The position numbers were made by a program, and so were the translations under genes. The notes under the pieces were generated by a model. That model did not search any database, was not told where the DNA came from, and was given only the letters and a program-made list of their open reading frames with translations. A stretch of 64,000 bases of DNA from Candidatus Yonathbacteria bacterium (lineage in GTDB: Bacteria; Patescibacteriota; Minisyncoccia; Phycocordibacterales; JACNGX01). Within the stretch, counting starts at the first letter, position 1; each line of letters opens with the position of its first letter. The DNA lies in contig JAAXWR010000002.1 in NCBI GenBank assembly GCA_013334825.1, positions 155,009-219,008 of the forward strand. The letters are read 5' to 3'. Positions 1 to 48,287 of this stretch are shown here, in pieces.

Positions 1-13
1 CAAGCACGAAACA

Positions 14-109
14 TGCTGCGGCGTTCGAATCCCTCACGCGAGCCAAGCAGTTGGCTCGCTCCTCTCCGCATAAGAAAATCACTGCCCCAAAAAGGGCGGG
101 ATTTTCAAA
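14..109 (+). repeat. Ser-tRNA-3'-like structured element, copy 1 of 3. It reads CGTTCGAATCCCT, then a hairpin, then CTCTCCGC and AAYAAAAATC, then a second hairpin followed by GGATTTT.
   Basis: Direct visual alignment with copies at 3791-3886 and 35625-35714. The TTCGAATCCCT and CTCTCCGC blocks match the T-arm and acceptor of the tRNA-Ser(GGA) 3' end at 4974-4995. Confidence 0.6.
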
Positions 110-3683: not shown

Positions 3684-3790
3684 CTTATTCACTTCGTTCA
3701 TTGCGGAGAGGAAGGGATTCGCTCCTTACAGGAGCAGTGCAGGTTTCCCATTTTTTCGGAGCATAGCTCCTCAAAAATATGGGAGAACCT

Positions 3791-3886
3791 TTTCGAATCC
3801 CTTCCCGCAGGCAAAGCAGCTTGCCTGCTCTCTCCGCTCAACAAAAATCGCACCCCTCAAAGGGTGCGGATTTTTGTACGAGCGGG
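3791..3886 (+). repeat. Ser-tRNA-3'-like structured element, copy 2 of 3.
   Basis: TTCGAATCCCTTCC, then hairpin GCAGGCAAAGCAGCTTGCCTGC, then CTCTCCGC and AACAAAAATC, then hairpin GCACCCCTCAAAGGGTGC, then GGATTTTTG. The blocks are collinear with 35625-35714. Confidence 0.7.
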
Positions 3887-4078
3887 AACGATATCCGCAA
3901 CTTTGAACCGGCAAATCGTTTAAGCTTTATCAGACTTGATAAGATTATACGAAATTTGCGACTAATATACAAAGAAAATCCTGCTTATTTTGATATTCCA
4001 CAATTCGCACAAAAGGTTTACTGAATTTACCGCTATAATCCGCTACAACCAGCTATATATAGCGTATCAGATAAAATT

Positions 4079-4873
4079 CTACTTTTTATCATAGACAGAT
4101 TCGAATTGAATATTTTGATCACTTATTCTAATAACTTCGCCACTTTTTATTGGAATCGAGTACTCTTGTGTCTGTGGATTAAAATTTTTCCCAGATAACG
4201 CTATTTTTGAGATAATCTTGCCAACCACCTTAGGATCACGGAGTTGATGCTCCATAATTTTTAATTCTGTCCGATGTTTTATATCGCCTACGCCGAAGAC
4301 CAGGACTTCTTGGTGCATCCTTGTATTAACAGACCCTGGACTTATCATAATGATTGTTACGTCTTGATTTTCTGGTTTACCGCTAAAATCTTTTAACCAT
4401 TGTTCCATACGTAATTTACCTTCTCTGTATGTTTCAATTCCACCACCAAGATCAGTATGGGCAGTATCTGAAGTTATGAAAACTATTCTGCCATGATTTT
4501 CCCTTAATGATTCAATTGCTGTCCGCGACAAAGCAATATTTGCAACCTCGTTTACCTTAAAGGCATATTCCTTGTCTTCCTTTAGACCAGTTACCCCTGC
4601 ATTTAATATTAGAACATCTATCCCACCCAATTCTGAAATACTCTCATCAATAAATTCTTGAGCATTATGTCTATCAGCCAAATCGACTTGTTTGGCATGT
4701 ATATCTGGATGAAGTTTTTTTATTTCTTTAATCTTACTTTCGGTACGAGCACAGATAGCGATTTCATGACCCTCGTCAAGTAAATCGTCAGCAATAGCTC
4801 TCCCAATGCCTTCTGTTCCACCAGTTAAGACAACCTTTTTTGTTTCAAACATATTTTGATTTAGTTTTTCCAT
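4079..4873 (-). CDS. Short-chain dehydrogenase/reductase (SDR) family oxidoreductase.
   Basis: N-terminal TGGTEGIGRAIA Rossmann motif, SDR-like overall layout and an ISPGSVNT region. The start was moved to the ATG at 4873 (MEKLNQ..). Confidence 0.8.
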   Translation of the reverse strand: MEKLNQNMFETKKVVLTGGTEGIGRAIADDLLDEGHEIAICARTESKIKEIKKLHPDIHAKQVDLADRHNAQEFIDESISELGGIDVLILNAGVTGLKEDKEYAFKVNEVANIALSRTAIESLRENHGRIVFITSDTAHTDLGGGIETYREGKLRMEQWLKDFSGKPENQDVTIIMISPGSVNTRMHQEVLVFGVGDIKHRTELKIMEHQLRDPKVVGKIISKIALSGKNFNPQTQEYSIPIKSGEVIRISDQNIQFESVYDKK

Positions 4874-4973
4874 TATAGTTCGAATCCCTTTAGAGTTCAG
4901 GCATTTTATCAAATTTCTGTTTTGAAAAGTAGCTTAAAACAAGGATATTTTAATGCACACTTTCCAAAACTTC

Positions 4974-5063
4974 TGGCGGAGAGGAAGGGATTCGAACCCT
5001 TGGTACCGTTACCGATACACCACCTTTCCAGGGTGGCCCATTCGACCGCTCTGGCACCTCTCC
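4974..5063 (-). tRNA. tRNA-Ser (anticodon GGA) with a long variable arm. CCA is encoded.
   Basis: Manual fold: acceptor GGAGAGG/CCTCTCC, anticodon loop CUGGAAA, T-loop TTCGAAT, discriminator G. Confidence 0.85.
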
Positions 5064-21150: not shown

Positions 21151-21478
21151 CAAAGGACGCCCTTCAGGGGCGTCCTTTGTGCGGAATGAGCGAGCAAACT
21201 GCTTTGCTCGCGTTGGGAATCGGACGGCTCGGCGATGTTGTCGCTTGCGACGACCGCGAGCCGCGTCCAGGAGTACTTAGCGGATTGCGAATAAGTGAAG
21301 CAATACGCTTAGTAACTCCGGGACGATTCCCGCATTCCGCACCCAGCCCTACTTTCATAACAAACGCATGTACACTACATGCGTTTGTTATGTGATTATT
21401 AGAAATATATATTATTGAGTGTTTAATGAAAGTAGAGCTGGGTGCGGAATGAGCGAGCAAACTGCTTGATATACATTA
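21151..21478 (+). repeat. Composite element downstream of tRNA-Gly. It contains a terminator hairpin, an inverted copy of the tRNA 3' end split by a CTGC-loop hairpin, an H2 module, a direct copy of the 3' end, a roughly 105-bp CCCAGCC hairpin and a second truncated inverted copy.
   Basis: 21180-21227 reads TGCGGAATG[AGCGAGCAAACTGCTTTGCTCGC]GTTGGGAATCGGACGG. 21319-21341 reads CGGGACGATTCCCGCATTCCGCA. 21342-21447 reads CCCAGCCCTACTTTCAT..ATGAAAGTAGAGCTGGG. The 24-bp string TGCGGAATGAGCGAGCAAACTGCT occurs at both 21180 and 21447. Confidence 0.8.
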
Positions 21479-24406: not shown

Positions 24407-24670
24407 CATATTGAAAAACACCCTTTAGGGTGTTTTTCAATATGTCCCTTCGGAGTAAGCCGACTGCTCGGCTTACGTCGGGAGTCGAACTGAGCACCAC
24501 TTTTGCTGTTGCAAAAGTGGTGCTCGACGTCCAGCGGTACTTATGGAAATGCGAGTGCCCGAAGCATTTCCATTAGTAACCGCGGGACGATTCCTGCCGA
24601 GGGGTTTTTGATTGTGAGCGTATCCCGCGAACCTTTCCGAGCAGTGAGTGTTCCTGCCGAGGGGACAGGC
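24407..24670 (+). repeat. Composite element downstream of tRNA-Arg. It contains a 21-bp-stem hairpin, an inverted 3' copy split by a CTGC-loop hairpin, and H1, H2 and degenerate direct 3' copies.
   Basis: GGGACATATTGAAAAACACCC..GGGTGTTTTTCAATATGTCCC, then TTCGG[AGTAAGCCGACTGCTCGGCTTACGT]CGGGAGTCGAAC. H1 is GAGCACCACTTTTGC..GCAAAAGTGGTGCTC. H2 is GTCCAGCGGTACTTAT..TTAGTAACC followed by GCGGGACGATTCCTGCCGAGGGG. Confidence 0.8.
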
Positions 24671-25264: not shown

Positions 25265-25400
25265 CCCAGCCCTACATTCATAATAAACGCATGTACACCA
25301 CGTGCGTTTATTTTGTGATTGTTGCATTTTTACATATTGCCACCTTTCATGAATGTAGGGCTGGGTGCCGAGGGAGGAAGGCAACTGCTTGCCCACAGTT
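25265..25400 (+). repeat. Composite element downstream of tRNA-Phe. It is a roughly 100-bp CCCAGCC hairpin module followed by an inverted acceptor copy and a CTGC-loop hairpin.
   Basis: CCCAGCCCTACATTCATAATAAACGCATGTACACCACGTGCGTTTATT..CATGAATGTAGGGCTGGG, then GTGCCGAGGGAGGAAGGCAACTGCTTGCCC. Confidence 0.8.
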
Positions 25401-25454
25401 TTATTCCTCAGGAATATGTTTGTAGAAATATGAAGATTTATGTAATTTCGAATC

Positions 25455-25492: not shown

Positions 25493-25747
25493 ATGACTAC
25501 GCTTAATATAAGAATTGAAGAAAAAATTAAAGTGAAGGCAAATAAAACATTATCTTCACTTGGGCTTGATATGTCTACGGCAGTTAAGATATTTTTGAAT
25601 CAAGTTATTATAGAAGACGGTTTACCGTTTACCCCTACGAATAATAAACTTATGCTAAAAGAACGTTGGGATAAACAAACTGCTCATGCATTGAAGTATG
25701 GAAAAAATTACAAAAATGGTAAAGATGTATTGTCTGACATAGTGTAA
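25493..25747 (+). CDS. dinJ: Type II antitoxin, DinJ/RelB family.
   Basis: MTTLNIRIEEKIKVKANKTLSSLGLDMSTAVKIFLNQVIIEDGLPF matches the DinJ RHH N-terminus. Confidence 0.8.
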   Translation: MTTLNIRIEEKIKVKANKTLSSLGLDMSTAVKIFLNQVIIEDGLPFTPTNNKLMLKERWDKQTAHALKYGKNYKNGKDVLSDIV

Positions 25748-25758
25748 TATTTTTTTGT

Positions 25759-26040
25759 ATGTATACGATACGTCGTTCAAAAGACTTTGAATTATCTATT
25801 AAACGTCTAAAACATGCAGGGTTAAAGCCGTCAGTAAAACATGATATTGAGTGTGTTATCGATTTGCTTGCTTTAGGGGAAAAGTTACCCGCGAAATATA
25901 GAGATCACAAATTACAAGGAGAACTTTCAGCGTATAGAGAGTGTCATATAAAAGGAGATTTGCTTTTGATTTATATGATAAGAAAAGAGTACATGATATT
26001 GATTCTTGTTGATATCGGTTCTCACGCGCAATTATTTTAA
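25759..26040 (+). CDS. yafQ: Type II toxin, YafQ (RelE/ParE superfamily).
   Basis: DHKLQGELSAYRECHIKGDLLLIY..GSHAQLF matches the YafQ consensus, and it lies immediately downstream of dinJ. Confidence 0.8.
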   Translation: MYTIRRSKDFELSIKRLKHAGLKPSVKHDIECVIDLLALGEKLPAKYRDHKLQGELSAYRECHIKGDLLLIYMIRKEYMILILVDIGSHAQLF

Positions 26041-34444: not shown

Positions 34445-34960
34445 TCATTTAAAAAGTTCCTCGATGTCTAATTTTCTAGGATTGTTTGTTATAATGACCT
34501 TTTTATCTTTAATGGATTTCATTACATGAAGCATATCTCTTTTGTGATTTTTGTTCCAGAGAAGGACCCATGTAAAAAATTTAAAATCAATAGTATCTTT
34601 TCTACCATCTTTCATTCCATGTCTTTTTTCTAATTCTAGATTTACCATTAATGATCTCTTAAAAATATTAAATAGATGACGATATGTTGGTACATTTATA
34701 AATATAATTAAGTCAGCCCAAGCTATTCTTTCAGGAAGTATTGATGAGTAGTTTCCGTCCACAATCCCAATATCTTTTGAAAGAAATTCTTTTTTACAGA
34801 TGTTTAACCACTCACCTTTATCTTTCTGTGTCCAGTTGTCGTTTAAGAGCAAATTATCCAAATGATACATAGGATAACCTGTATATCTACTAAGCCTATT
34901 TGTGAGAGTAGATTTACCAGAGCCGCTACCGCCCAGAATAATGATTCTTTTGTATTTCAT
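34445..34960 (-). CDS. P-loop kinase of the topology-modulation-protein / adenylate-kinase-like family.
   Basis: Walker A ILGGSGSGKSTLTNRL, then ..HLDNLL.. and IVDGNY. The architecture is that of the FlaR-like family. Confidence 0.55.
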   Translation of the reverse strand: MKYKRIIILGGSGSGKSTLTNRLSRYTGYPMYHLDNLLLNDNWTQKDKGEWLNICKKEFLSKDIGIVDGNYSSILPERIAWADLIIFINVPTYRHLFNIFKRSLMVNLELEKRHGMKDGRKDTIDFKFFTWVLLWNKNHKRDMLHVMKSIKDKKVIITNNPRKLDIEELFK

Positions 34961-35002: not shown

Positions 35003-35488
35003 CTAAAGAGATACTAATTGCCATGCGCCTTGGTTATATCTTCCTGTTTTTTCCAATGAAGCTATTTCTTCTTGTATTTCTTTTATATCCTCTTCGTTAA
35101 GTGGTGCAAAACCATCATAGAAACCTGATGATCTGTCCGGTAAATATACTGCCTCAGGAAATTTTTGATGCCCTGCATCTTTTGAGCGACCAAAAATATG
35201 GATGTGCAAAAAAGGTTTCTCTCCTGTCTTCCATGCCCAATTTCCCATATCGTGGTAATTCACTTTGACGACAGGAATACCTCTTTTATTCATTGCGTTC
35301 TCTAGTGCTTCACCTGCAAGCATACTCAAACGCATGAGTTCTACCGCAGCCGATGGAGATAGTTTGGTTCTATCGGTAACGGAACGGTCTTTTACTCTGA
35401 TACGCAGATGCCCACCGTCTGTTCTAGAAACAAACGGCTTGTCATGAGATTCAAGTATAAAGTGTTCAGTATAGAAAAATTCTGCCAT
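35003..35488 (-). CDS. HIT (histidine triad) family protein.
   Basis: HIHIFGR histidine-triad motif near the C-terminal third. Confidence 0.6.
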   Translation of the reverse strand: MAEFFYTEHFILESHDKPFVSRTDGGHLRIRVKDRSVTDRTKLSPSAAVELMRLSMLAGEALENAMNKRGIPVVKVNYHDMGNWAWKTGEKPFLHIHIFGRSKDAGHQKFPEAVYLPDRSSGFYDGFAPLNEEDIKEIQEEIASLEKTGRYNQGAWQLVSL

Positions 35489-35624
35489 ATAAAACTATGA
35501 TACCATGTCGATTGATTTTTAGGGAGGGATTTGTCCTGGAGTTACTAATTGAAATGTTCTATGTATTCTCATTTTAATAAGTACTCCTGGACGCGGCTCG
35601 CATTTCTCGCGAGCGAGAAATATG

Positions 35625-35714
35625 CTCCGCCGTTCGAATCCCTCCTCGCAGGCAAAGCAGTTTGCCTGCTCTCTCCGCCCAACAAAAATCGCACCCTAAA
35701 GGTGCGGATTTTTG
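35625..35714 (+). repeat. Ser-tRNA-3'-like structured element, copy 3 of 3.
   Basis: CGTTCGAATCCCTCC, then hairpin TCGCAGGCAAAGCAGTTTGCCTGC, then TCTCTCCGCC and CAACAAAAATC, then GCACCCTAAAGGTGC and GGATTTTTG. It is preceded by the palindrome GCATTTCTCGCGAGCGAGAAATATGC. Confidence 0.7.
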
Positions 35715-35787
35715 AACGGGCGGGCATCGTGGTTTAAATACCAGAGCGGTGATACATCATAAGGGCAATTTGAGATAATTTCAATTA

Positions 35788-36618
35788 CTAAACTGAGACA
35801 TGTAGCTCGGAGGTTTGTAAAATTTCTTGGTGTAATTTTTCTATTTTCTCCTGATCCTCTTTCTGTCGTATTGCAGAATAAAATTCTGGATCAAATTTTC
35901 TGATTGCGTCTTTCAAGGTGTCTGGAGTTTCAATAACCACATTAGGATCCTTTCGCTGCTCCATTGTTCTTATTTGAGAAGCTACTTCATCCCAGAGTTT
36001 TTCGGCGACATCTTTGTTGGGCATAGTAGCAAGTTTCTCAATAAACACTTTTCTATACTTCTCAATCCCCGAGCCTATACGTGCATGAAACATTCCAGAG
36101 ATTCCAAATTGAATTGTCCTAAAATCAGGTTCTTGTAGCAGTAGTGTTTCTTTTTCTTTATCTGAAGCTTCTCCGTATTTTTCATTCAACATTTGCTTGT
36201 ATTCCTCAGTTTTTTGATAGAAACTAAGTTGATCCTCAATCTCTTTTTCAATTATTGCAGTACTCAGAGGTTGAACTCGCAGATCCTCGTAATATTTTGA
36301 ATTTTCATTATTTTCCGCTCCAAGTTTCTCCATTACTTTTTGTCGGTATGAATCAATTGCAATGTTAGTACTCAATAGATTTTCGGCATCAACATACAAG
36401 AATGAATCTACATCACTTTCAGATCTTGCTTGTTTCCCTTTAATCATTGATCCATAAATCGTTGCTCCTAAAACTTCGGGATTTTCTTTTTGAAGGTCTT
36501 TGATTGTAGCTCGAAAAGTGTCTAGACGAGCTTTTGCTTCATCTTGAATCGGCAATTCAAAACGCTTCTCCTTTATTTTTTCTTCAGTTTGATTATTTAG
36601 AGAGGCTTGCTCTTTCAT
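35788..36618 (-). CDS. Nucleotidyltransferase-fold protein (Pol-beta superfamily; KNTase- or CD-NTase-like), otherwise hypothetical.
   Basis: GATIYGSMIKGKQARSESDVDSFLYVD matches the GS..x9-13..[DE]h[DE]h NTase signature. The rest of the protein is K/E-rich. Confidence 0.5.
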   Translation of the reverse strand: MKEQASLNNQTEEKIKEKRFELPIQDEAKARLDTFRATIKDLQKENPEVLGATIYGSMIKGKQARSESDVDSFLYVDAENLLSTNIAIDSYRQKVMEKLGAENNENSKYYEDLRVQPLSTAIIEKEIEDQLSFYQKTEEYKQMLNEKYGEASDKEKETLLLQEPDFRTIQFGISGMFHARIGSGIEKYRKVFIEKLATMPNKDVAEKLWDEVASQIRTMEQRKDPNVVIETPDTLKDAIRKFDPEFYSAIRQKEDQEKIEKLHQEILQTSELHVSV

Positions 36619-36656
36619 ACACCTATTCTAGCTTAAATGCTCGTATTTATCTACTC

Positions 36657-36687
36657 GGGTCTGCCGATACTAAGTGCTTAATGCGGG
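36657..36687 (+). repeat. 31-bp direct repeat GGGTCTGCCGATACTAAGTNCTTAATGCGG, copy 1. Copy 2 at 37813-37843 abuts the tRNA-Ser(CGA) 3' end.
   Basis: Read directly. The two copies bracket the 36777-37742 gene. Confidence 0.8.
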
Positions 36688-36776
36688 CAACTCGGGTTAA
36701 GTACCAAGTGTATGAGACACAATAAGGCTGGTTTGGAAGAATTTCAGAGGCTAATCCGAGGTATGTGGGTCGGAGT

Positions 36777-37742
36777 CTATAATATCGACTCGAAGTATTC
36801 TTTAAACTCCTCAGAAGAAGCTGTTTGGTATTTTTCATAAAGGCTTTTAATTTCCTCATCCGAGAAAACAGATATAACGTCATGTGTTATTTTTAGGTTT
36901 GGTAGCTCTTTCTTTAGGAGAAGATAGAGGGCTATTTTAGGCAACAAATATTTTGACTCCTCCATTCCCTTAAAATGAATATTGCGTTCTGTTGCCATTC
37001 GAGGATCAAAGTTGTATGGCATGCTTGAGAATTCTCGACTTACATCATTCCCTGATTTTTTCATCTCGTGATATAGGCGAGTGTGAAAACCTCCCATTGA
37101 AAAAAGTATCTTCAAGTTTTCTTTTTTCTGGAGATCAGGATTCTGCTTCAATGTTTCAGCCAAAGCTTCTGGAAGTTTTTCTAAAATATAATCTTCGCGA
37201 GCCTTCTGCATGTCGGACTCAAATTTTGATACATTACCGATTCTTCGAAGCGTTTCCTCATAGGGCAAGGACTTATTTATGAGGTTGTTATAAGCACCAT
37301 TGGATGCATACAGACCCATAAGGTTTTTAAAGACGACATTATCATTTGGAACGTCTACAAGCATTACTTTCTTCTCTGATTTATACAAACCCTCGAGTAA
37401 CGAAGCATAGAAGTCTTTCCACAAAAATGGCTTTCCATTCTGCTTTTCCATATCCATCGCCTGTTCAGGGGTCAGAGTACCATTTGATACTTCGTTGAAA
37501 ATATCGAGTCGAGCAGAATCCCAACCGGCGTTTTCCTGAATGAGAATATCTGCGTTTTTTAGGCGTTCACCCACCGCTTGTCCGTTTTCTGCTGTTGCGT
37601 GTTTGTGAAAGAAGAAATTGGTTTCAATTTTGGGCACGTTTTCAATACCTTTTTCTCTCAGCAAAGAACCTAAATCATTCTGAGCCGAAGATTTTTCTAA
37701 GTCTAAATTATTGCTTTTTAACCCAAAATTTTGTCCTTCCAT
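36777..37742 (-). CDS. Hypothetical protein of 321 aa, inside a repeat-bounded islet.
   Basis: ORF with no recognised motif. It is flanked by the 31-bp direct repeats. Confidence 0.45.
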   Translation of the reverse strand: MEGQNFGLKSNNLDLEKSSAQNDLGSLLREKGIENVPKIETNFFFHKHATAENGQAVGERLKNADILIQENAGWDSARLDIFNEVSNGTLTPEQAMDMEKQNGKPFLWKDFYASLLEGLYKSEKKVMLVDVPNDNVVFKNLMGLYASNGAYNNLINKSLPYEETLRRIGNVSKFESDMQKAREDYILEKLPEALAETLKQNPDLQKKENLKILFSMGGFHTRLYHEMKKSGNDVSREFSSMPYNFDPRMATERNIHFKGMEESKYLLPKIALYLLLKKELPNLKITHDVISVFSDEEIKSLYEKYQTASSEEFKEYFESIL

Positions 37743-37840
37743 GTTTTTATTTTAGCTTAAAATTACCCTTTTGGTAATCATGTCGTCGGGTCGCACCACA
37801 GTCATATGACCATGGGTCTGCCGATACTAAGTTCTTAATG

Positions 37841-37927
37841 CGGAGAGGGAGGGATTTGAACCCTCGAACGAGTTACCTCGTTGCCGCATTTCGAGTGCGG
37901 TGCCTTCGACCACTCAGCCACCTCTCC
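37841..37927 (-). tRNA. tRNA-Ser (anticodon CGA).
   Basis: Manual fold: acceptor GGAGAGG/CCTCTCC, anticodon stem-loop CCGCA-CUCGAAA-UGCGG, long variable arm, T-loop TTCAAAT. Confidence 0.85.
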
Positions 37928-38186
37928 AATATCTTAACTACACTCTTTCGCTATGATACATGAAAGGGTGCCTTTCCGCGACATCCCCGTTCTTTGCTGC
38001 GCAAAGAGCGGGGTGCGCGGACCCGCCCAGCTCTTTCAAAAGGGCTGGACGGGCGACCACAGAGCCACCTCTCCATTTCTTCTGCGTCTTTCTGTATTCG
38101 TTCCGCGAAGTTCTGCGTAATTCGTATATCCTAGCACCTTTTGCCATTTTTTCAAAACATGATACAATGCATCGGTCAAATAAATA

Positions 38187-38349
38187 CATGGCCCTATCGT
38201 TCCCGGTGGAGAAACCAAGTAAAACTTTGTTTCTCCACCGAGGACCCGCGATATTGCAACCAAATCAAAGATTTGGGCAATATCGGGGCTAACGGTTTCA
38301 ATTGACACTGAACACCAAAAGATTGAAAAATAATTAAAAACTAGTTCAT
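38187..38349 (+). repeat. Duplication of 15 bp spanning the tRNA-Glu 5' end, flanking a roughly 140-bp hairpin-containing insert.
   Basis: CATGGCCCTATCGT at 38187-38201 and again at 38347-38361. The intervening sequence contains GGTGGAGAAAC..GTTTCTCCACC and GCGATATTGC..GCAATATCG hairpins. Confidence 0.65.
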
Positions 38350-38421
38350 GGCCCTATCGTCTAACGGTTAGGACATCGCCCTTTCACGGCGGTAATCGGG
38401 GTTCGATTCCCCGTAGGGTCA
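38350..38421 (+). tRNA. tRNA-Glu (anticodon TTC).
   Basis: Manual fold: acceptor GGCCCTA/TAGGGTC with one G-U pair, D-arm GTCTAACGGTTAGGAC, anticodon loop CUUUCAC, T-arm CGGGG-TTCGATT-CCCCG. Confidence 0.85.
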
Positions 38422-38819
38422 CAAAACGCCAGCGCCGAAGTATATCTTCGGCGCTGTTGCGTTTTGTAGACCCTACGGGGAATCGAACGGCGCAAGGCGG
38501 TATACAAGATGCGCAAGATTGCGCATGCTTGTCGCTGCGCCGCGTCCAGCGGTACTTATCAGAATGCGAGCATTGGCGAAGCATTATGATTAGTAACCGC
38601 GGGACGATTCCCCGTAGTGCCTTTCGTGAGAATCGAACCGAGCACCACTTTTGCAATGGCAAAAGTGGTGCTCGATGTCCAACAGTATCCAGCCCCACTT
38701 TCATAATAAACACATGTGCTGTGATAGATTTTTTATCCGAGTTATGAGTATTGTTTATGAATGAAGCCTCTCATGAAAGTGGAGCTGGATAACCGTGGGG
38801 ACGATTCCCCGTAGAGTCA
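38422..38819 (+). repeat. Composite element downstream of tRNA-Glu. It contains a long hairpin, a contiguous inverted copy of the tRNA 3' end, a GGCGCAAGGCGGTATACAAG box, H2, a direct 3' copy, H1, a roughly 100-bp CCAGCC hairpin and a second direct 3' copy.
   Basis: 38467-38490 TAGACCCTACGGGGAATCGAACGG is the reverse complement of the tRNA's 3' end. 38599-38621 reads GCGGGACGATTCCCCGTAGTGCC. 38797-38819 reads GGGGACGATTCCCCGTAGAGTCA. The modules align with those of the Gly, Arg and Val loci. Confidence 0.8.
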
Positions 38820-38888
38820 GTGAAAAAAACTACACCCCATCGCTTAATTTTGCTATACTATCCGCATACTCATAATTACGAAACATAT

Positions 38889-39308
38889 ATGGCAAAAGGA
38901 ATGATGTGTCAGAGTTGCGGTATGCCACTCTCCAAGGACCCACAGGGTGGGGGAACAAACGCGGACGGTTCGAAATCCGCAATGTATTGCAGTTATTGTT
39001 ATCAGAACGGGGCATTTACTGCGCCAGATATAACTGCCGTGCAAATGCAAGAGTTCGTGGTAGCAAAATTGAAGGAAATGCATTATCCAGGATTTATTGC
39101 GAAGTTTTTTGCAAAAAATATTCCCAGTCTTGAACGTTGGAAGAATGTTTCTGTTTCAGCCTCCCCGGTCGCTCCTGCCATTGAAACGGTAGTTCCTCCT
39201 GTATACACACCTGCTTCTGACTCGATTGTTTCAAATATCCCTGAGGCGCCTATTGTTTCTCCTCGTGATGAATCTGCGAGTGGAACAGGGGACCAAGAAA
39301 GCGCATAA
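38889..39308 (+). CDS. Putative zinc-ribbon domain protein (Zn_ribbon_2-like).
   Basis: MAKGMMCQSCGMPL..DGSKSAMYCSYCYQNGAF. ATG 38889 was preferred over the in-frame GTG 38820, which lies inside the tRNA-Glu 3'-copy repeat. Confidence 0.55.
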   Translation: MAKGMMCQSCGMPLSKDPQGGGTNADGSKSAMYCSYCYQNGAFTAPDITAVQMQEFVVAKLKEMHYPGFIAKFFAKNIPSLERWKNVSVSASPVAPAIETVVPPVYTPASDSIVSNIPEAPIVSPRDESASGTGDQESA

Positions 39309-43407: not shown

Positions 43408-43500
43408 TGTTCGAGCCCCGTGTCACCACGCAAATACAAACAATCGCAAGGGCATGCCTTGCGATTGTGTATTTGTGGGCGACACAGGACTCGTCCCGCG
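43408..43500 (+). repeat. Direct repeat of about 93 bp, copy 1. It duplicates the downstream hairpin, the inverted T-arm copy and the last 18 nt of tRNA-Val. Copy 2 is at 43676-43768.
   Basis: The two copies are identical over roughly 90 nt (CGTTCGAGCCCCGTGTCACCACGCAAATACAAACAATCGCAAGGGCATGCCTTGCGATTGTGTATTTGTGGGCGACACAGGACTCG). They bracket a CCAGC hairpin module at 43503-43606. Confidence 0.9.
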
Positions 43501-43743
43501 GTTATCCAGCTCCACTTTCATAATAAACACATACGCCATGATAGATTTTTTATCCGAGACGTAGGTATTGTTTATAGATGAAGTCTCTCATGAAAGTGGG
43601 GCTGGATACCGTTGGACGCGGCGCGGCGACAAGCACTCGCGAGTAAACTCGCTCGTCTTGTATACCGCCTTGCGCCGTTCGAGCCCCGTGTCACCACGCA
43701 AATACAAACAATCGCAAGGGCATGCCTTGCGATTGTGTATTTG

Positions 43744-43966: not shown

Positions 43967-44905
43967 ATGTCCACTACATACGACACCATCATTATCGGCG
44001 CTGGCGCCGCCGGACTCTCCGCAGGTATTTATGCTGGACGCTATGGCATGAAGACATTGATTCTTTCGCATGAACTTGGGGGAGAAACAGCTCAAGCGGG
44101 TGTTATTGAAAATTGGCCAGGGGATAAAGAAATTGAGGGCTTCAAACTCATTTTTCGTTTTCGTGATCACGCACTCGCGTCAGGCGCAGAGATTATAAAT
44201 AGCCCCGCAGTCTCTGCGATACGTGAAGGAGAACTATTTCACGTGACAGACAAAGCGGGAGCAGTGCATATAGGAAAGACGGTTGTCTTGGCGCAAGGGT
44301 CACGCCGTCGTCGCTTGGGACTACCAAATGAAGAAACACTTACCGGACGCGGGGTTCATTATTGTGTAACATGTGACGGTCCTGTATATGGAGGAAAGAC
44401 GATTGCAATGGTTGGCGGGGGAGATGCTTCAGTAAAAGGTATTCTTCTTGCCGCGCAATACGCGTCGAAGATACTTTTTATTGTTCGTGGAAATGAACTT
44501 CGCGCGGAACCAGTCAATGTGGAGCATATGCGTGCATTGGGAGATAAAGTGGAAGTGTTGTTTGATACTGAAGTAAAAGAAATTATTGGCACGAACGCAC
44601 TGGAAAAACTCGTTATTTCAAAGCCGTATCATGATTCGACCGATCTTGTTGTCGATGGATTGTTTGTTGAAATTGGCGCAGAACCAGAAACAGACATTGC
44701 CAAAGAACTTGGTGTAATCCTTGATGAATATGGGTATGTAAAGACAGATTGTATGATGTATACAAATGTCCCTGGTGTATCGGCGGCAGGGGACTTGGTC
44801 AATCATTTTGGGCATTTCAAACAAGTGATTACTGCTTCTGCTACAGGTACTGCGGCGGCAACCGCGGTGTTTGGGTATCTGAAGAATGCGAGAAATGAGA
44901 AATGA
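43967..44905 (+). CDS. trxB: Thioredoxin reductase.
   Basis: FAD motif IIIGAGAAGLSAGIYAG, redox-active CVTCDG, NADPH motif MVGGGDASV. Confidence 0.9.
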   Translation: MSTTYDTIIIGAGAAGLSAGIYAGRYGMKTLILSHELGGETAQAGVIENWPGDKEIEGFKLIFRFRDHALASGAEIINSPAVSAIREGELFHVTDKAGAVHIGKTVVLAQGSRRRRLGLPNEETLTGRGVHYCVTCDGPVYGGKTIAMVGGGDASVKGILLAAQYASKILFIVRGNELRAEPVNVEHMRALGDKVEVLFDTEVKEIIGTNALEKLVISKPYHDSTDLVVDGLFVEIGAEPETDIAKELGVILDEYGYVKTDCMMYTNVPGVSAAGDLVNHFGHFKQVITASATGTAAATAVFGYLKNARNEK

Positions 44906-44993
44906 GGAAAATAGAAAAACGGTGAATTATAAAATAAAAAAGTGGTGCTCATGCCCCACTTTTATACAAACAAAAACCGCCCATGAAAGGCGG

Positions 44994-45524
44994 TTACTTT
45001 TTGATACGGAATCCTTTGGTATGTACTTTGCGCAAATGAGCGAACTGCACTATTTTCTTTATGAGGCGACGCATGGTTGTTGTCACATACAGAATGTCAT
45101 ATCCCAGATATGCCGTTTGTATCATCGTATCCCCGTTGACATGACAGAGTACACCGCCAATATCAAGTACAGGAATAATTACTCGTGCGGAAATTCTATG
45201 TGTGTCCAGAAGGTCTTGAAAAAGAGCTTGGTTCCGTTCCAATTCATCTCGTGCGATTTGTCGCTCTTTGAACGTCTCCAGCTCTCTTCCCAGGGGACCA
45301 TGTTCTGTTAATGTAAAACCCGCCTCTTTGAGTGCTGTGTTGATTTGTGTTCCACCCCCGATGCAGACCACAACCGAGTACTTATGTGTCAGCTTTTTCA
45401 TCCATCTGAGAAATGCGGGGAGGATAAATACATCACCCGAAACTTTCACAAATGCGTTTTTCTTCGCGATTTGAGTCGTCATGATATCTTGATTTACTTG
45501 TTTTTGAGTTACTTCTGCCGACAT
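44994..45524 (-). CDS. Hypothetical protein, possibly amino-acid-kinase-fold (uridylate-kinase-like).
   Basis: VKVSGDVF and VVVCIGGGTQIN resemble motifs of the AAK/UMP-kinase fold. The match is weak. Confidence 0.35.
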   Translation of the reverse strand: MSAEVTQKQVNQDIMTTQIAKKNAFVKVSGDVFILPAFLRWMKKLTHKYSVVVCIGGGTQINTALKEAGFTLTEHGPLGRELETFKERQIARDELERNQALFQDLLDTHRISARVIIPVLDIGGVLCHVNGDTMIQTAYLGYDILYVTTTMRRLIKKIVQFAHLRKVHTKGFRIKK

Positions 45525-45620
45525 GGTACAGGAAAAGAAGAGATGTGCAAGTATAATAAAAGCGGGGCCGACAGGCCCCGCTTTTATCGTTATCGTTTAC
45601 AGTTTGTCGCTCGTCGTCTT

Positions 45621-46814
45621 TTATTTCAACTTTGACCGACGGAGAAATGCGGGGACAGATGACCAATCATCATCTTCTTCGATTTCAGTAGATTCTTGTT
45701 TAGCATTACCAACACTACCAATAGGACGATGGATTTCGCTAATGACGTCGCTGCGCTTATTTTCACGATCTGATTCACGAGGTGCAGGTTCGCGTGTCTC
45801 GTGCTCTTCAGTATGTTCCGCAAAAAGTGTTTGTGCGGGGCGACGACTATTTTGTGTGTGCCCAGGAAAACCAGAAGCAATAACAGTGATTTTGAGTTCG
45901 CCTTTTTTGAGTGAATCGTCTTTGATTGTACCGAAGATAACTTTTGCCTCTGGGTCGGCGGATTCGGTAATAACACGGGCGGCTTCCTGAATTTCGTGCA
46001 TGGTAATATCATCACTTCCAGCAATAGCAAAGAGAACCCCGCGCGCACCATCAATGGAGAGTTCAAGAAGAGGGGAATTGATGGCTGCCTGTGCAGCTTT
46101 TTCTGCACGCTTGTCGCCAGTTGCGATGCCGATGCCCATAAGTGCTGAACCTGCGTCTTCCATGACAGCGCGGATATCCGCGAAGTCTACGTTGATAATA
46201 CCTGGAGTAGTGATGAGATCGGAAATACCTTCAACGGCTTGGCGAAGAATGTCGTCGCACATGGCGAATGCATCCTTTGCACTGGTGTTTTTGTCTACTG
46301 TTTCGAGAATACGATCGTTGGGAACCAGGATCATAGTATCCACAGCGAGGCTTAGATTTGCGAGTGCTTGTTCAGCAATACGTGTGCGTTGTGTTCCTTC
46401 AAATGAAAATGGTTTTGTGACGACTGCGACTGTAAGTGCGCCAGATTCTTTTGCTGCTCGAGCAACAACTTCGGACGCCGAACTGCCTGTTCCTCCACCT
46501 AAACCAGATGCAATAAAAACCATGTCAGAGTTTTGAACTGCATCCATGATTTCCTCTTTGCTTTCTTCTGCGGCACGCTTACCAACGTCTGGATTCATTC
46601 CTGAGCCAAGACCACGGGTAAGATTGCGACCAAGATGAATTTTCTTTTTGGGAAGTGCTTGGTGAAGATGTTGAGCGTCAGTGTTCATGACAATAAACTC
46701 AACGTCTTTTACTTCGCTTCGCATCATGTGGTTGACTGCATTTGTGCCCGCGCCGCCGACGCCGACGACTTTGATACGCGCAAATGTTTCGATATCAGGG
46801 GTGACTTTAGGCAT
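45621..46814 (-). CDS. ftsZ: Cell division GTPase FtsZ.
   Basis: Tubulin signature GGGTGSG (GLGGGTGSSASEV), N-terminal KVVGVGGAGTNAVNHM, and a C-terminal acidic tail. Confidence 0.95.
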   Translation of the reverse strand: MPKVTPDIETFARIKVVGVGGAGTNAVNHMMRSEVKDVEFIVMNTDAQHLHQALPKKKIHLGRNLTRGLGSGMNPDVGKRAAEESKEEIMDAVQNSDMVFIASGLGGGTGSSASEVVARAAKESGALTVAVVTKPFSFEGTQRTRIAEQALANLSLAVDTMILVPNDRILETVDKNTSAKDAFAMCDDILRQAVEGISDLITTPGIINVDFADIRAVMEDAGSALMGIGIATGDKRAEKAAQAAINSPLLELSIDGARGVLFAIAGSDDITMHEIQEAARVITESADPEAKVIFGTIKDDSLKKGELKITVIASGFPGHTQNSRRPAQTLFAEHTEEHETREPAPRESDRENKRSDVISEIHRPIGSVGNAKQESTEIEEDDDWSSVPAFLRRSKLK

Positions 46815-47114
46815 AAAACGAGAATAAAGAATAAAGAAGCAAGAATTAAGAATACGTCCTGTGGCTACGTTAACGGATGTACTGTAATTATTCCACGAGT
46901 GTGGATGTATACTTGAGTATCATATCAGAGAGTGTGGGTTTATGAAAGTGCTTGACAGATGAGCAAGTTAGTAGGATTGTAATTATGCGAATACGTGAAA
47001 GGATGAAAAGATTAGTAAGTTGTTGTGTATATTGTATATATGAGGAAAAACAAAAATAGTCGGCTATGCCGACTAACTATATGATGTATGTTTCCAATTT
47101 TTATCGTTTCCTTT

Positions 47115-48287
47115 TTAAGGGAGAAACTGTTTAAACCATTCTCCTACGCTTCCTGCGCCACGTTTGCTTTTATTGACAAGTTTGATGCCTGCTGATTCTT
47201 CGGTGTTGTCCACACCCATAATACAGAGTCCATACGCAACCGACCAACTTGTATCGGTTGTTTTGTATTTTGTATTTTTCATGGAGTCCATATATGCAAC
47301 TTTGGAAGGAAGTTTGAGTGTGTTTTTGGCAAAGTCTTCGATGCCGGTGAGTGCAGCAGACCCTCCCGTAATGACGATGCCTGCGGGAAGGAGATTATTT
47401 TTACCGAGTTTTTTGAGGTGTGCTTCGATAATATCAAAAATGTCTGAAAGGCGAGCGTTGATGATTTCATTGACTTTCTTTTTAGGATACACATTCAAGT
47501 TCATGCCTTTTTTGATTTTCTCTGCTTCTTCGAGAGGAATCTTGAAACCGAGAGCGATATCATTGGTGATTTCCATTCCGCCAATGGGATAGATTTTGAG
47601 AGAGACGGGCATGCTGTTTTCAAATACAGCAACAGAAAGTGTTTCCGCGCCAATATTGGCGAGCATGCAACCCGCGGTTTTTTGGCGTTTGGTAAGCGTT
47701 ACAAAACTTGCTGCGATAGGTGACGGCATGACATCGTCGACAGCAACACCCGCTTCTTCAACTGCAGCGATAAAGTCATGAAGATGTTGAGAGAGGCACG
47801 TAATAAAGAGCGTATGTGTTTCAACACGCGATCCTTTGAGTCCTGTAGGACGCCCAAGGACTTCTTTTCCATCAAGGATAACAGCAGTTGGAATCACTTG
47901 GATGACTTGGTCGTTTGCGGAGAGTCCTGCAGCATCTTGGGCTGCTTCCATAGCTTTGTCGATATCTCCAGGTGTTACCTCATTGTCTGCGCGCGATACA
48001 AAAACAGAGCCAGTGGAGAGGACGGATTCGACACTGAGTCCACCAACGGCGACAAATGCTTTTTTGACTTCTACATTTGCTGCCTTTTCTGCTTTTTCTA
48101 TTGCTTCGCGAATGCTTTCAGATGCTTCAGGAACAGAAACAATATACCCATGGCGTAATCCACGAGATTCAGCGATACCCATGCCGATAATTTCGGGCTG
48201 GCCACCATGTGCGTCATGTTCAGCGATGACTACACGGACAGATGATGTGCCGATATCAATACCGGTTGAAATGTGTCGTTTTGCCAT
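47115..48287 (-). CDS. ftsA: Cell division protein FtsA.
   Basis: Actin-fold N-terminus ISTGIDIGTSSVRVVIA and ..VITGGSAALTGI.. It lies immediately upstream of ftsZ. Confidence 0.9.
   Translation of the reverse strand: MAKRHISTGIDIGTSSVRVVIAEHDAHGGQPEIIGMGIAESRGLRHGYIVSVPEASESIREAIEKAEKAANVEVKKAFVAVGGLSVESVLSTGSVFVSRADNEVTPGDIDKAMEAAQDAAGLSANDQVIQVIPTAVILDGKEVLGRPTGLKGSRVETHTLFITCLSQHLHDFIAAVEEAGVAVDDVMPSPIAASFVTLTKRQKTAGCMLANIGAETLSVAVFENSMPVSLKIYPIGGMEITNDIALGFKIPLEEAEKIKKGMNLNVYPKKKVNEIINARLSDIFDIIEAHLKKLGKNNLLPAGIVITGGSAALTGIEDFAKNTLKLPSKVAYMDSMKNTKYKTTDTSWSVAYGLCIMGVDNTEESAGIKLVNKSKRGAGSVGEWFKQFLP

Follow-up and report, generated by a model that had tools for sequence, protein, structure and literature searches.

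Two genes beside a tRNA gene raised the question addressed here: do they form a partnered system, and how did they come to lie where they do? They are found in a 64,000-nt stretch of DNA (the window) from a Candidatus Yonathbacteria bacterium (contig JAAXWR010000002.1, positions 155,009 to 219,008 of the forward strand), a member of the Patescibacteria, whose genomes are thought to be small and streamlined. One gene encodes a 276-aa protein with the signature of a nucleotidyltransferase (NTase) and the other a 321-aa protein, and a reading made from the sequence alone had proposed them as an NTase and its partner, a candidate defence or accessory system on a mobile islet at tRNA-Ser(CGA). Our results indicate that the segment from about 35720 to 37839 was acquired horizontally and consists of two independent single-gene cassettes, placed in tandem and in the tRNA's direction, directly after the final base of tRNA-Ser(CGA) and ahead of its terminator; we assign this reading a probability of about 0.78. 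The two genes do not make up a partnered defence system. The following features carry the argument (ORF, open reading frame):

37840-37927, minus strand: tRNA-Ser(CGA) (ARAGORN; Rfam tRNA, 58.6 bits; 88% identical to the tRNA-Ser(CGA) of contig L061)
35720-37839, minus strand: inserted segment of about 2.12 kb, two tandem cassettes (empty-site alignment against L061)
36683-37839, minus strand: cassette 1, with leader, 321-aa gene and 3' flank (junction profile matches; copy in L011)
37743-37839, minus strand: leader of cassette 1 with repeat copy 2 (homology with the other leader; promoter scan)
37777-37749, minus strand: promoter-like site of cassette 1, TTACCA-17-TAAAAT, ending 6 nt before the ATG (consensus match only)
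36777-37742, minus strand: 321-aa gene (ORF)
36683-36776, minus strand: 3' flank of cassette 1, ending in a degenerate tRNA-Ser 3' end, GGTACTTAACCCGAGTTGCCCGC (36683-36705) (flank/tRNA alignment; junction profile)
35720-36682, minus strand: cassette 2, with leader, 276-aa NTase gene and 3' flank (junction profile matches; L001 homologue between like junctions)
36619-36682, minus strand: leader of cassette 2 with repeat copy 1 (leader homology; promoter scan)
36653-36625, minus strand: promoter-like site of cassette 2, TAGATA-17-TAGAAT (promoter scan)
35788-36618, minus strand: 276-aa NTase gene (ORF)
35720-35787, minus strand: 3' flank of cassette 2, ending in a degenerate tRNA-Ser 3' end, GGTATTTAAACCACGATGCCCGC (35720-35742) (flank alignment; junction profile; L061)
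35689-35707, both strands: bidirectional intrinsic terminator (terminator scan; L061 alignment)
CCGTTCAAAAAT: sequence to which the tRNA-Ser end would be joined in the empty site

The insertion is seen by comparison with an empty site. L061 is a metagenome contig that is syntenic with the window across tRNA-Ser(CGA), tRNA-Glu and tRNA-Val, and over a further 3.2 kb or so of aligned sequence that lies downstream of tRNA-Val (window 43979-47956), with 65-75% nucleotide identity over the syntenic stretch. Its positions 2548-2747 align to window 35521-35712 and its positions 2750-2840 to window 37837-37927; the gap between these two blocks is 2 nt in L061 and about 2.12 kb in the window. In L061 the terminator stands directly after tRNA-Ser(CGA), reading ..GGATTTTCAAAT up to the join and GCGGAGAGGG.. 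beyond it. Thus, approximately window 35720-37839 was inserted after the 3' end of tRNA-Ser, ahead of the terminator of this tRNA. The insertion point is the 3' end of tRNA-Ser(CGA) at position 37840, and the left limit of the insert is ambiguous by 2 nt (35718-35720). The mobile islet that the sequence-only reading had placed here is inserted DNA indeed, with different limits and made of two cassettes. Its G+C content is 37.6%, compared to 43.8% for the window. Both ORFs are present as had been called and are the only ones in the insert, with no longer competing ORF on the plus strand over them; their products are 100% identical to the database entries HGB03_03275 and HGB03_03280, labelled as hypothetical proteins of a Candidatus Yonathbacteria metagenome-assembled genome (MAG). 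The terminator scan found a single intrinsic terminator for the two-gene insert, that at 35689-35707, after the second gene.

The direct repeats, which had been described as 31 bp long and as bracketing the 321-aa gene, are present as two 30-nt copies (36657-36686 and 37814-37843) identical at 29/30 positions. These are the only copies in the window when up to 3 mismatches are allowed, with 0 expected from 100 shuffles, and the second does lie at the end of tRNA-Ser(CGA), whose final 4 nt it overlaps. The homology of the leaders continues past the 30 nt, however, through a 33-nt indel and then TTTAAGCTAnAATA up to the start codons, and the regions downstream of both stop codons are mutually homologous. 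Since whole leaders and 3' flanks are homologous, the repeats mark the starts of two tandem cassettes, not the ends of a single islet. Treating the 30-nt repeat as the att site or target-site duplication of one islet is excluded by the same two homologies. On the minus strand the order is therefore tRNA-Ser; leader, 321-aa gene, flank with pseudo-tRNA end; leader, 276-aa gene, flank with pseudo-tRNA end; terminator. An nhmmer profile of the junction matches in full at 36620-36775, by its right half at 37747-37865 beside the tRNA, and by its left half at 35712-35811 beside the terminator.

The leaders of these cassettes are about 65-100 nt long, begin with ATTAAGnACTTAGTATCGGCAGACCC and contain a promoter-like box, TTTAAGCTAnAAT, at 6-7 nt upstream of the ATG. 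The 3' flanks are about 70-95 nt long and finish in a pseudo-tRNA end of the form ..GGTAyTTAAaCC..TGCCCGC; compared to the true tRNA end GGTTCAAATCCCTCCCTCTCCGC, the cassette-end sequences GGTACTTAACCCGAGTTGCCCGC and GGTATTTAAACCACGATGCCCGC are degenerate copies only. In support of a promoter, TTTAAGCTAnAAT stands at a constant distance from the start codon in most junctions. That each gene is preceded by such a box, 6-7 nt from its ATG, suggests separate, nearly leaderless transcripts, and judging from the sequence the cassette mRNA would probably be leaderless or nearly so.

Relatives of the two genes confirm that the cassettes are modular, with breakpoints that coincide with junctions, so that what is exchanged is a single gene together with its leader and flank. 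The most telling case is L011, a locus from a Candidatus Nomurabacteria MAG, which has 1108 bp in common with the window (92% nucleotide and 94% amino-acid identity) and no further similarity detected in its 21 kb; no further ORF homologous to the window was found within ±10 kb. The shared stretch starts inside tRNA-Ser(TGA) and ends 20 nt past the stop codon of the 321-aa gene. The proximal boundary falls at the identical base in L011 and in the window, between ..CTCCGC and A.., despite the different tRNA-Ser isoacceptors. In L001 an array separated by junctions holds a 212-aa gene, a polyprenyl synthase gene, the NTase gene (84% amino-acid identity) and a beta-lactamase-family gene. The L004 array consists of a 250-aa gene, the 321-aa gene (92%) and a terminator, and the junction upstream of its 321-aa gene, with ..CCCTCTCCAC before the boundary and AGTA.. 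after it, is a near-match to the acceptor strand of tRNA-Ser(CGA). In L007 the order is a 581-aa gene, the 321-aa gene (79% amino-acid identity), a metallo-beta-lactamase (MBL)-fold gene and a histidine kinase gene. Moreover, L012 carries the 321-aa gene downstream of tRNA-Ser(GCT), a GATase gene and a 148-aa gene, and in L075 the NTase gene occurs in a variable region downstream of tRNA-Ser(GCT), alongside a rolling-circle Rep gene and a Fic gene. The cargo of sister arrays includes beta-lactamase-family, MBL-fold, GNAT and short-chain dehydrogenase (SDR) genes.

The window itself contains a second cassette locus, at tRNA-Ser(GGA), with the same layout and other cargo:

4974-5063, minus strand: tRNA-Ser(GGA)
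3882-4973, minus strand: tRNA-Ser(GGA)-linked cassette
4079-4912, minus strand: its single SDR gene (PF00106)
3882-3909, minus strand: pseudo-tRNA end of this cassette, followed by a terminator like that at 35689-35707 and then by a variant trailing RNA (see below)
3701-3718: 18-nt copy of the tRNA-Ser(GGA) 3' end, beyond the variant trailing RNA

It is the hairpin sequence of the 35689-35707 terminator that recurs behind this cassette. The two genes of the insert and the SDR gene are all three within the 7 lowest-GC of 42 ORFs.

A separate observation concerns the L007 locus. At 878-2867 (2878-4867 in L013) it encodes a 539-aa large serine recombinase with Resolvase, Recombinase and Zn_ribbon_recom domains, beside tRNA-Ser(GCT) and near an oppositely oriented tRNA-like gene that ARAGORN calls as tRNA-Ser(ACT). 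Both the recombinase and the tRNA-like gene lie about 5 kb upstream of the 321-aa homologue, and this locus may represent an autonomous element of the same integration niche.

How the cassettes move is a separate matter. We propose that they would be gained, lost and reshuffled singly, by recombination at a boundary between ..C(C/T)C(C)(G/A)C and A that real tRNA-Ser 3' ends and the pseudo-tRNA ends of cassettes have in common. We consider a trans-acting site-specific recombinase the likeliest agent, at about an even chance, because the proximal boundary is identical in two genomes and analogous in most of the junctions examined.

Several results weigh against the reading of the segment as acquired cassettes moved in this way. 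Its polarity, gain here versus loss in L061, is based on one empty site and the L011 comparison. The promoter scan found 9 sites versus 6.4 ± 2.6 in shuffles, which is no enrichment, and the likeness of the pseudo-tRNA ends to tRNA-Ser is only loose. When folded as DNA, on both strands, the junctions shared no hairpin, with z values of -0.4 to -1.8. The L011 copy breaks off 20 nt past its stop codon and lacks the remainder of the 3' flank, and the L001 array has no tRNA within 6 kb; thus, not all events fit one clean att x att scheme. There is no recombinase in the insert, and none was detected by Pfam among ten further ORFs of the window, a scan that did not include every ORF. Finally, tblastn with the L007 large serine recombinase returned nothing outside L007, L008 and L013, and nothing in the window.

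Part of this would be expected if the cassettes moved without a dedicated recombinase, an explanation that we take as the main, and a serious, alternative, although less probable than the first. Movement would then occur by RecA-dependent recombination between junction repeats (about 60-150 nt), with circles going out and coming back in at any junction, or by homology-facilitated illegitimate recombination after DNA uptake, anchored on tRNA-Ser. No recombinase lies in or beside the arrays except in L007; the junctions are direct repeats with no hairpin potential; L011 pairs a clean boundary on the tRNA side with a truncated, apparently illegitimate distal one; and the L001 array stands away from any tRNA. 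Against this explanation, two genomes whose tRNA-Ser isoacceptors differ share the exact base of the boundary, after ..CTCCGC, and most junctions examined have an analogous ..CCCGC, ..CTCCAC or ..CTCCGC boundary; such precision is typical of site-specific exchange. Moreover, the junction copies are about 70% identical between most cassettes, which makes them a poor substrate for RecA.

It is very unlikely that the segment is ancestral and was lost from L061 by deletion, the leaders and flanks being duplicated promoter and untranslated-region modules or a regulon element. There is a single empty-site genome and no recombinase was found, and a promoter-like box in the junction would be kept for regulatory reasons; but L011 holds a cassette of 92% nucleotide identity behind another tRNA-Ser isoacceptor, with no other homology detected in 21 kb, no relative has the same neighbours on either side and the breakpoints fall at the junctions, the GC of the cassette genes is low, and another gene occupies the same layout at a second tRNA-Ser of the window.

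Are the two genes, nevertheless, a pair? The sequence-only reading had proposed this and had held that it would fall if they never co-occurred elsewhere. Across 14 independent contexts, surveyed over ±6-10 kb of flank where the contig allows (a scope that is local and not genome-wide, which also weighs against our reading), the NTase gene and the 321-aa gene were found together in 0/14. Five are NTase contexts (L001, L009, L075, L077 and two contigs of P0010) and nine are contexts of the 321-aa gene (L004, L011, L012, L013, L014, L016, L017, L018 and L019); the window is the only locus with both. Because they do not co-occur, and because each has its own promoter-like leader and its own cassette end, the two genes are not a pair, and their products presumably act separately, both as accessory cargo. 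As for the defence libraries, which had been suggested as a check, neither protein had a significant match in PADLOC, PHROGs or NCBIfam, and neither was matched by tblastn against 50,697 phage records. That the NTase and the 321-aa protein form one two-gene module on a tRNA-linked islet, either a defence sensor or signal generator with its effector or an MNT (minimal nucleotidyltransferase)-type toxin-antitoxin, is very unlikely, being close to refuted by the absent co-occurrence. In its favour, the genes are neighbours in acquired DNA at a tRNA, read in the same direction and are separated by 158 nt; defence cargo occurs at equivalent positions elsewhere (see below); one relative in the 321-aa family carries a fused ART-PolyVal domain, which is typical of conflict proteins; and PADLOC gives weak cyclase matches (E 0.007-0.013).

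The cassettes resemble two known systems and differ from both. As occurs with tRNA-targeted islands, foreign DNA has entered at a tRNA 3' end and left the tRNA intact, as the empty site shows; each unit has a copy resembling the tRNA 3' end at its distal end, the units stack in tandem, and the cargo is accessory and of lower GC. Unlike such islands, the units are single-gene, about 1 kb long and without an integrase; their distal 'repeat' imitates the tRNA end only loosely, the leader and 3' flank are conserved in the manner of a cassette family, and the crossover apparently lies at the very last bases of the tRNA and not in the T or anticodon loop. With integrons they share co-oriented single-gene cassettes, a conserved element between them that resembles a recombination junction, gene content interchangeable among relatives, and cargo of the small-molecule-modifying kind (NTase, beta-lactamase-family, MBL-fold, GNAT and SDR). 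However, no intI was found among the ORFs scanned, the junctions are neither imperfect palindromes nor attC-like single-stranded hairpins, each cassette has a promoter-like box instead of relying on Pc, and the insertion point is a tRNA-Ser 3' end and not attI. The cassette system is not an integron. Note that attC-like hairpins were considered for the junction and discarded, no significant fold having been obtained. A literature search for integron-like cassettes or tRNA-linked structured RNAs in Patescibacteria or the candidate phyla radiation (CPR) found nothing relevant.

For the NTase pair this result is deflationary: two separately acquired accessory enzymes, and no new NTase-based defence system. 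It does provide a concrete and repeatable route of gene gain, in which promoter-carrying single-gene cassettes with a shared junction of about 150 nt are stacked at tRNA-Ser and exchanged between otherwise unrelated genomes, in arrays that are integron-like in logic without the parts of an integron. The leads of higher value are this cassette family, the predicted hydrolase family of the 321-aa protein and, above all, the RNA that trails the tRNA genes.

The NTase of cassette 2 has the Pol-beta signature that had been read in it: its motif YGS..(x11)..SDVDSFLYVD satisfies the pattern hG[GS]-x9-13-Dh[DE]h, and the structure model, which is confident (pLDDT 91), shows the NTase alpha/beta fold. 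Among 33 homologues G56, S57, D69 and D71 are invariant and D77 nearly so, and all those of the 33 with a taxon name are from Patescibacteria-type MAGs. PF18765 matches just under threshold (E 6.7e-6, 26.6 bits versus a cut-off of 26.9) and PF01909 reaches 19.5 versus 21; a precomputed PF18765 match is present in most of the homologues. The protein consists of an N-terminal NTase core and a conserved helical C-terminal domain with the invariant block GMFHARxGxGxxKYR, plus W209 and E220, and no family match was found for this C-terminal motif.

Several classes were compared with this NTase. It has the Pol-beta NTase core in common with the cGAS/DncV-like nucleotidyltransferases (CD-NTases) of the cyclic-oligonucleotide-based antiphage signalling systems (CBASS), which had been offered as one option, but it does not pass as a CD-NTase, for which a specific fold and profile match together with an adjacent effector gene were required. 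It does not correspond either to the MNT of MNT-HEPN (type VII) toxin-antitoxin systems: it has 276 aa, versus about 100-140 aa in the small MNTs, and NCBIfam MntA gives 14.5 bits versus a cut-off of 60. Whereas MNT antitoxins have a HEPN partner, neither neighbour of the NTase gene has a HEPN match, and a manual reading of the alignment consensus found no conserved Rx4-6H in the C-terminal domain. From MNT and the antibiotic NTases (KNTase/ANT(4'), LinB and AadA/AAD(9)) it differs by an identity of only 10-17% and by its own invariant GMFHARxGxGxxKYR motif. The description that fits best is that of a two-domain nucleotidyltransferase of MNT/ANT-like type, not a CD-NTase, and the enzyme would transfer a nucleotide (NMP) to some small-molecule or macromolecular substrate.

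The 321-aa protein of cassette 1 had been described as matching nothing recognisable, and it has indeed no Pfam, NCBIfam, PHROG or PADLOC match; its fold, on the other hand, is remotely of the EreA/ChaN type. A family profile search of 1.84 billion representatives retrieved 971 relatives at E<=1e-3, 669 of them at E<=1e-10; the family comprises at least 971 clusters at 50% identity. Pfam gave no meaningful match on 60 diverse members, and profile searches of the PDB with the family gave matches at chance level only, for instance NleB/SseK at E 0.02. In those 60 members H48, D65, E70, R182, G217 and H220 are invariant. The structure model is confident, and its top Foldseek group is the EreA/ChaN class, used here as a superfamily of erythromycin esterases, ChaN, BcR135/136, HopBA1, PMT/RRSP and TraB-type domains. 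The fold is shared, remotely, at TM-scores of 0.33-0.40, and this distance counts against our assignment. From its model, we place the protein remotely within the EreA/ChaN fold class and regard it as a probable His/Glu/Arg/His hydrolase. One relative, P0061 (695 aa), joins an N-terminal ART-PolyVal ADP-ribosyltransferase domain (residues 192-360, E 9e-17) to a 321-aa-family domain (373-687), a hint that domains of this type are used in inter-genomic conflict proteins. With its confident model, its catalytic-looking invariant residues and this one fusion, the large and uncharacterised family is a tractable target for enzymology. As a side observation, the relatives P0047, P0059, P0060, P0066 and P0067 have long N-terminal extensions without a Pfam match.

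Beyond the terminator lies the second element of the locus. A Ser-like structured element had been placed at 35625-35714; it is real, and it has two components, an inverted, hairpin-interrupted copy of the tRNA-Ser 3' end (35625-35680) and the bidirectional terminator (35689-35707), at the end of a larger structured RNA, about 170 nt long, that trails the tRNA gene and from which the insert now separates tRNA-Ser(CGA). Its copies in the window, found with a covariance model, are:

35513-35685, minus strand: trailing RNA of tRNA-Ser(CGA) (covariance model R1: 154 bits, E 1.7e-47, tRNA-sense strand)
21174-21344, plus strand: trailing RNA copy
24439-24608, plus strand: trailing RNA copy
38479-38611, plus strand: trailing RNA copy
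43473-43706, minus strand: trailing RNA copy
3767-3844, minus strand: trailing RNA variant
25360-25417, plus strand: trailing RNA remnant
1-75, minus strand: trailing RNA cut by the start of the window (eighth copy)

By this model, a full, variant or remnant copy lies downstream of 7/7 tRNAs of the window, on the sense strand, and one more follows the L004 cassette. The window has four copies of its conserved core, GTCCCGnnGTTACTAA..TAAGTACnnCTGGACG (one strand), all beside a tRNA. A scan with the exact core pattern retrieved 55 metagenome loci, and the same scan of viral contigs gave no match. Of the 55 loci, 39 have a tRNA at a distance of 84-510 nt, always in the same orientation relative to the core, with at least 13 tRNA identities represented; 11 of the remaining 16 cores lie within 300 nt of a contig end. 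Rfam gave no gathering-score match for the element in the window and nothing relevant at E<=5 in 35300-39000.

The structure of this RNA is supported by covariation. Among 43 unique cores the free nn/nn positions covary (CA/TG 22, CG/CG 14, GA/TC 3, TG/CA 1, GA/TT 1, unpaired 2); note that the invariance of the outer core helix is in part imposed by the search pattern. From a 22-sequence alignment (A9), RNAalifold predicted 37 pairs, and 21 of these show compensatory changes. The paired cells amount to 97.5%, versus 83.5 ± 0.8% in shuffles and 31-41% in slid controls, and 0/500 shuffles equal the real alignment on any of the five measures; single-sequence folds gave z values of -7.3 and -8.5. 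The minimum free energy was lower on the tRNA-sense strand in 38/40 units, by 8.7 kcal/mol on average, with 30 G.U pairs versus 4, which suggests that the RNA is transcribed in the same direction as the tRNA. The elements at 35.5 kb and 38.5 kb had also been considered as antisense-strand hairpin RNAs or as miniature inverted-repeat transposable elements (MITEs) with tRNA-derived terminal inverted repeats, an orientation that the strand test reversed. In addition, the trailing RNA of tRNA-Ser(CGA) is orthologous to the L061 copy (69% identity), and the compensatory changes between the two in the core helix argue for selection on structure.

A trailing unit opens, often, with a terminator-like hairpin, and then has a copy of the tRNA acceptor 5' strand. 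Next comes a covarying hairpin of 8-9 bp whose A-CUGC-U loop is invariant, and then a repeat of the T-stem 5' strand together with AAUCGAAC. GGCGGAGC and GCGAGCCG form a helix around a hairpin; the long core hairpin that follows has a bulged U and varies at its tip, and the unit closes with GAUUCC and, in many copies, the tRNA 3' strand once more. The 5' arm, split by the A-CUGC-U hairpin, is complementary to the 3' half of its upstream tRNA; it matches the upstream tRNA 3' end at 7.3/10 and 11.6/13 positions, versus 5.8/10 and 7.7/13 for the distal copy. The remainder of the RNA forms a conserved scaffold of several hairpins. The RNA is thus widespread, supported by covariation and tied to tRNA genes of many identities, and the tRNA-complementary arm makes its function directly testable. 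Anti-tRNA, quality-control, processing-signal or guide roles are speculation at present. It might represent a novel kind of guide or antisense RNA that is specific to individual tRNAs, for instance the programmable partner of a protein acting on the cognate tRNA or its gene (in quality control, or to repair or protect tRNA 3' halves), or else the RNA part of an RNA-directed landing pad for mobile DNA, and we regard this as a rather improbable guess. Evidence against the landing-pad version comes from L011, where the 321-aa cassette also stands at a tRNA-Ser and the model finds no such RNA.

In fact, the covariance model found no trailing RNA in L001, L009, L011-L014, L016-L019, L075 or L077, so the RNA is lineage-restricted and not required for cassette insertion. 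The idea of such a requirement had been entertained, and was weakened by the cassettes of L011, L012 and L013, which lie near tRNA-Ser genes without it. The gap between a tRNA and its trailing RNA does appear to be a general landing site for cargo. In L045 (151-3742, tRNA-sense) a trailing RNA without a nearby tRNA is preceded by an N6_Mtase/Eco57I methylase and a Methylase_S specificity subunit, and in L067 (154-4741, tRNA-sense) another is preceded by SIR2_2 and HerA (DUF87) genes and small ORFs. The expectation that tRNA-linked sites of this kind serve as a context for defence genes is borne out by these restriction-modification and SIR2+HerA genes.

Several smaller observations were made around the trailing units. 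A MITE-like element of about 100 nt occurs at approximately 21343-21441, 25266-25364, 38684-38793 and 43506-43605; it has terminal inverted repeats (CCAGCCCnACTTTCAT and ATGAAAGTnGAGCTGG) and an internal terminator-like hairpin, and sits after tRNA 3'-end copies (Gly, Phe) or within the core hairpin of a trailing RNA (Val, second Glu unit). At 38622-38820 a second trailing unit, interrupted by this element, stands in tandem behind the tRNA-Glu unit and ends with a copy of the tRNA-Glu 3' end (38803-38820). The distal 3'-end copy of tRNA-Arg(CCT), at about 24590-24605, is closer to the tRNA-Arg(GCG/TCT) ends of other loci than to its own tRNA, which suggests exchange between units.

The 422-nt spacer between the divergent tRNA-Ser(CGA) and tRNA-Glu genes (187 nt in L061) contains partial duplicates of the 5' ends of these two tRNAs (38054-38075 and 38178-38200), each followed by a GC-rich hairpin, which could represent another class of tRNA-derived element. 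On the far side of the tRNA-Ser(CGA) trailing RNA, a minus-strand gene at 34445-34960 encodes a P-loop kinase-like homologue of the 'DNA topology modulation protein' (NCBIfam PRK08118, E 8e-37), and its GC of only 30% may mark another acquired gene; the other neighbour on that side (35003-35488, minus strand) encodes a weakly HIT-like protein. Finally, some 400 nt downstream of tRNA-Phe and of its MITE and truncated trailing unit is a gene for a YafQ/ParE-type toxin (25759-26040, plus strand; PF15738, E 5e-26), and the region of small ORFs at about 25500-25750 may encode its antitoxin.

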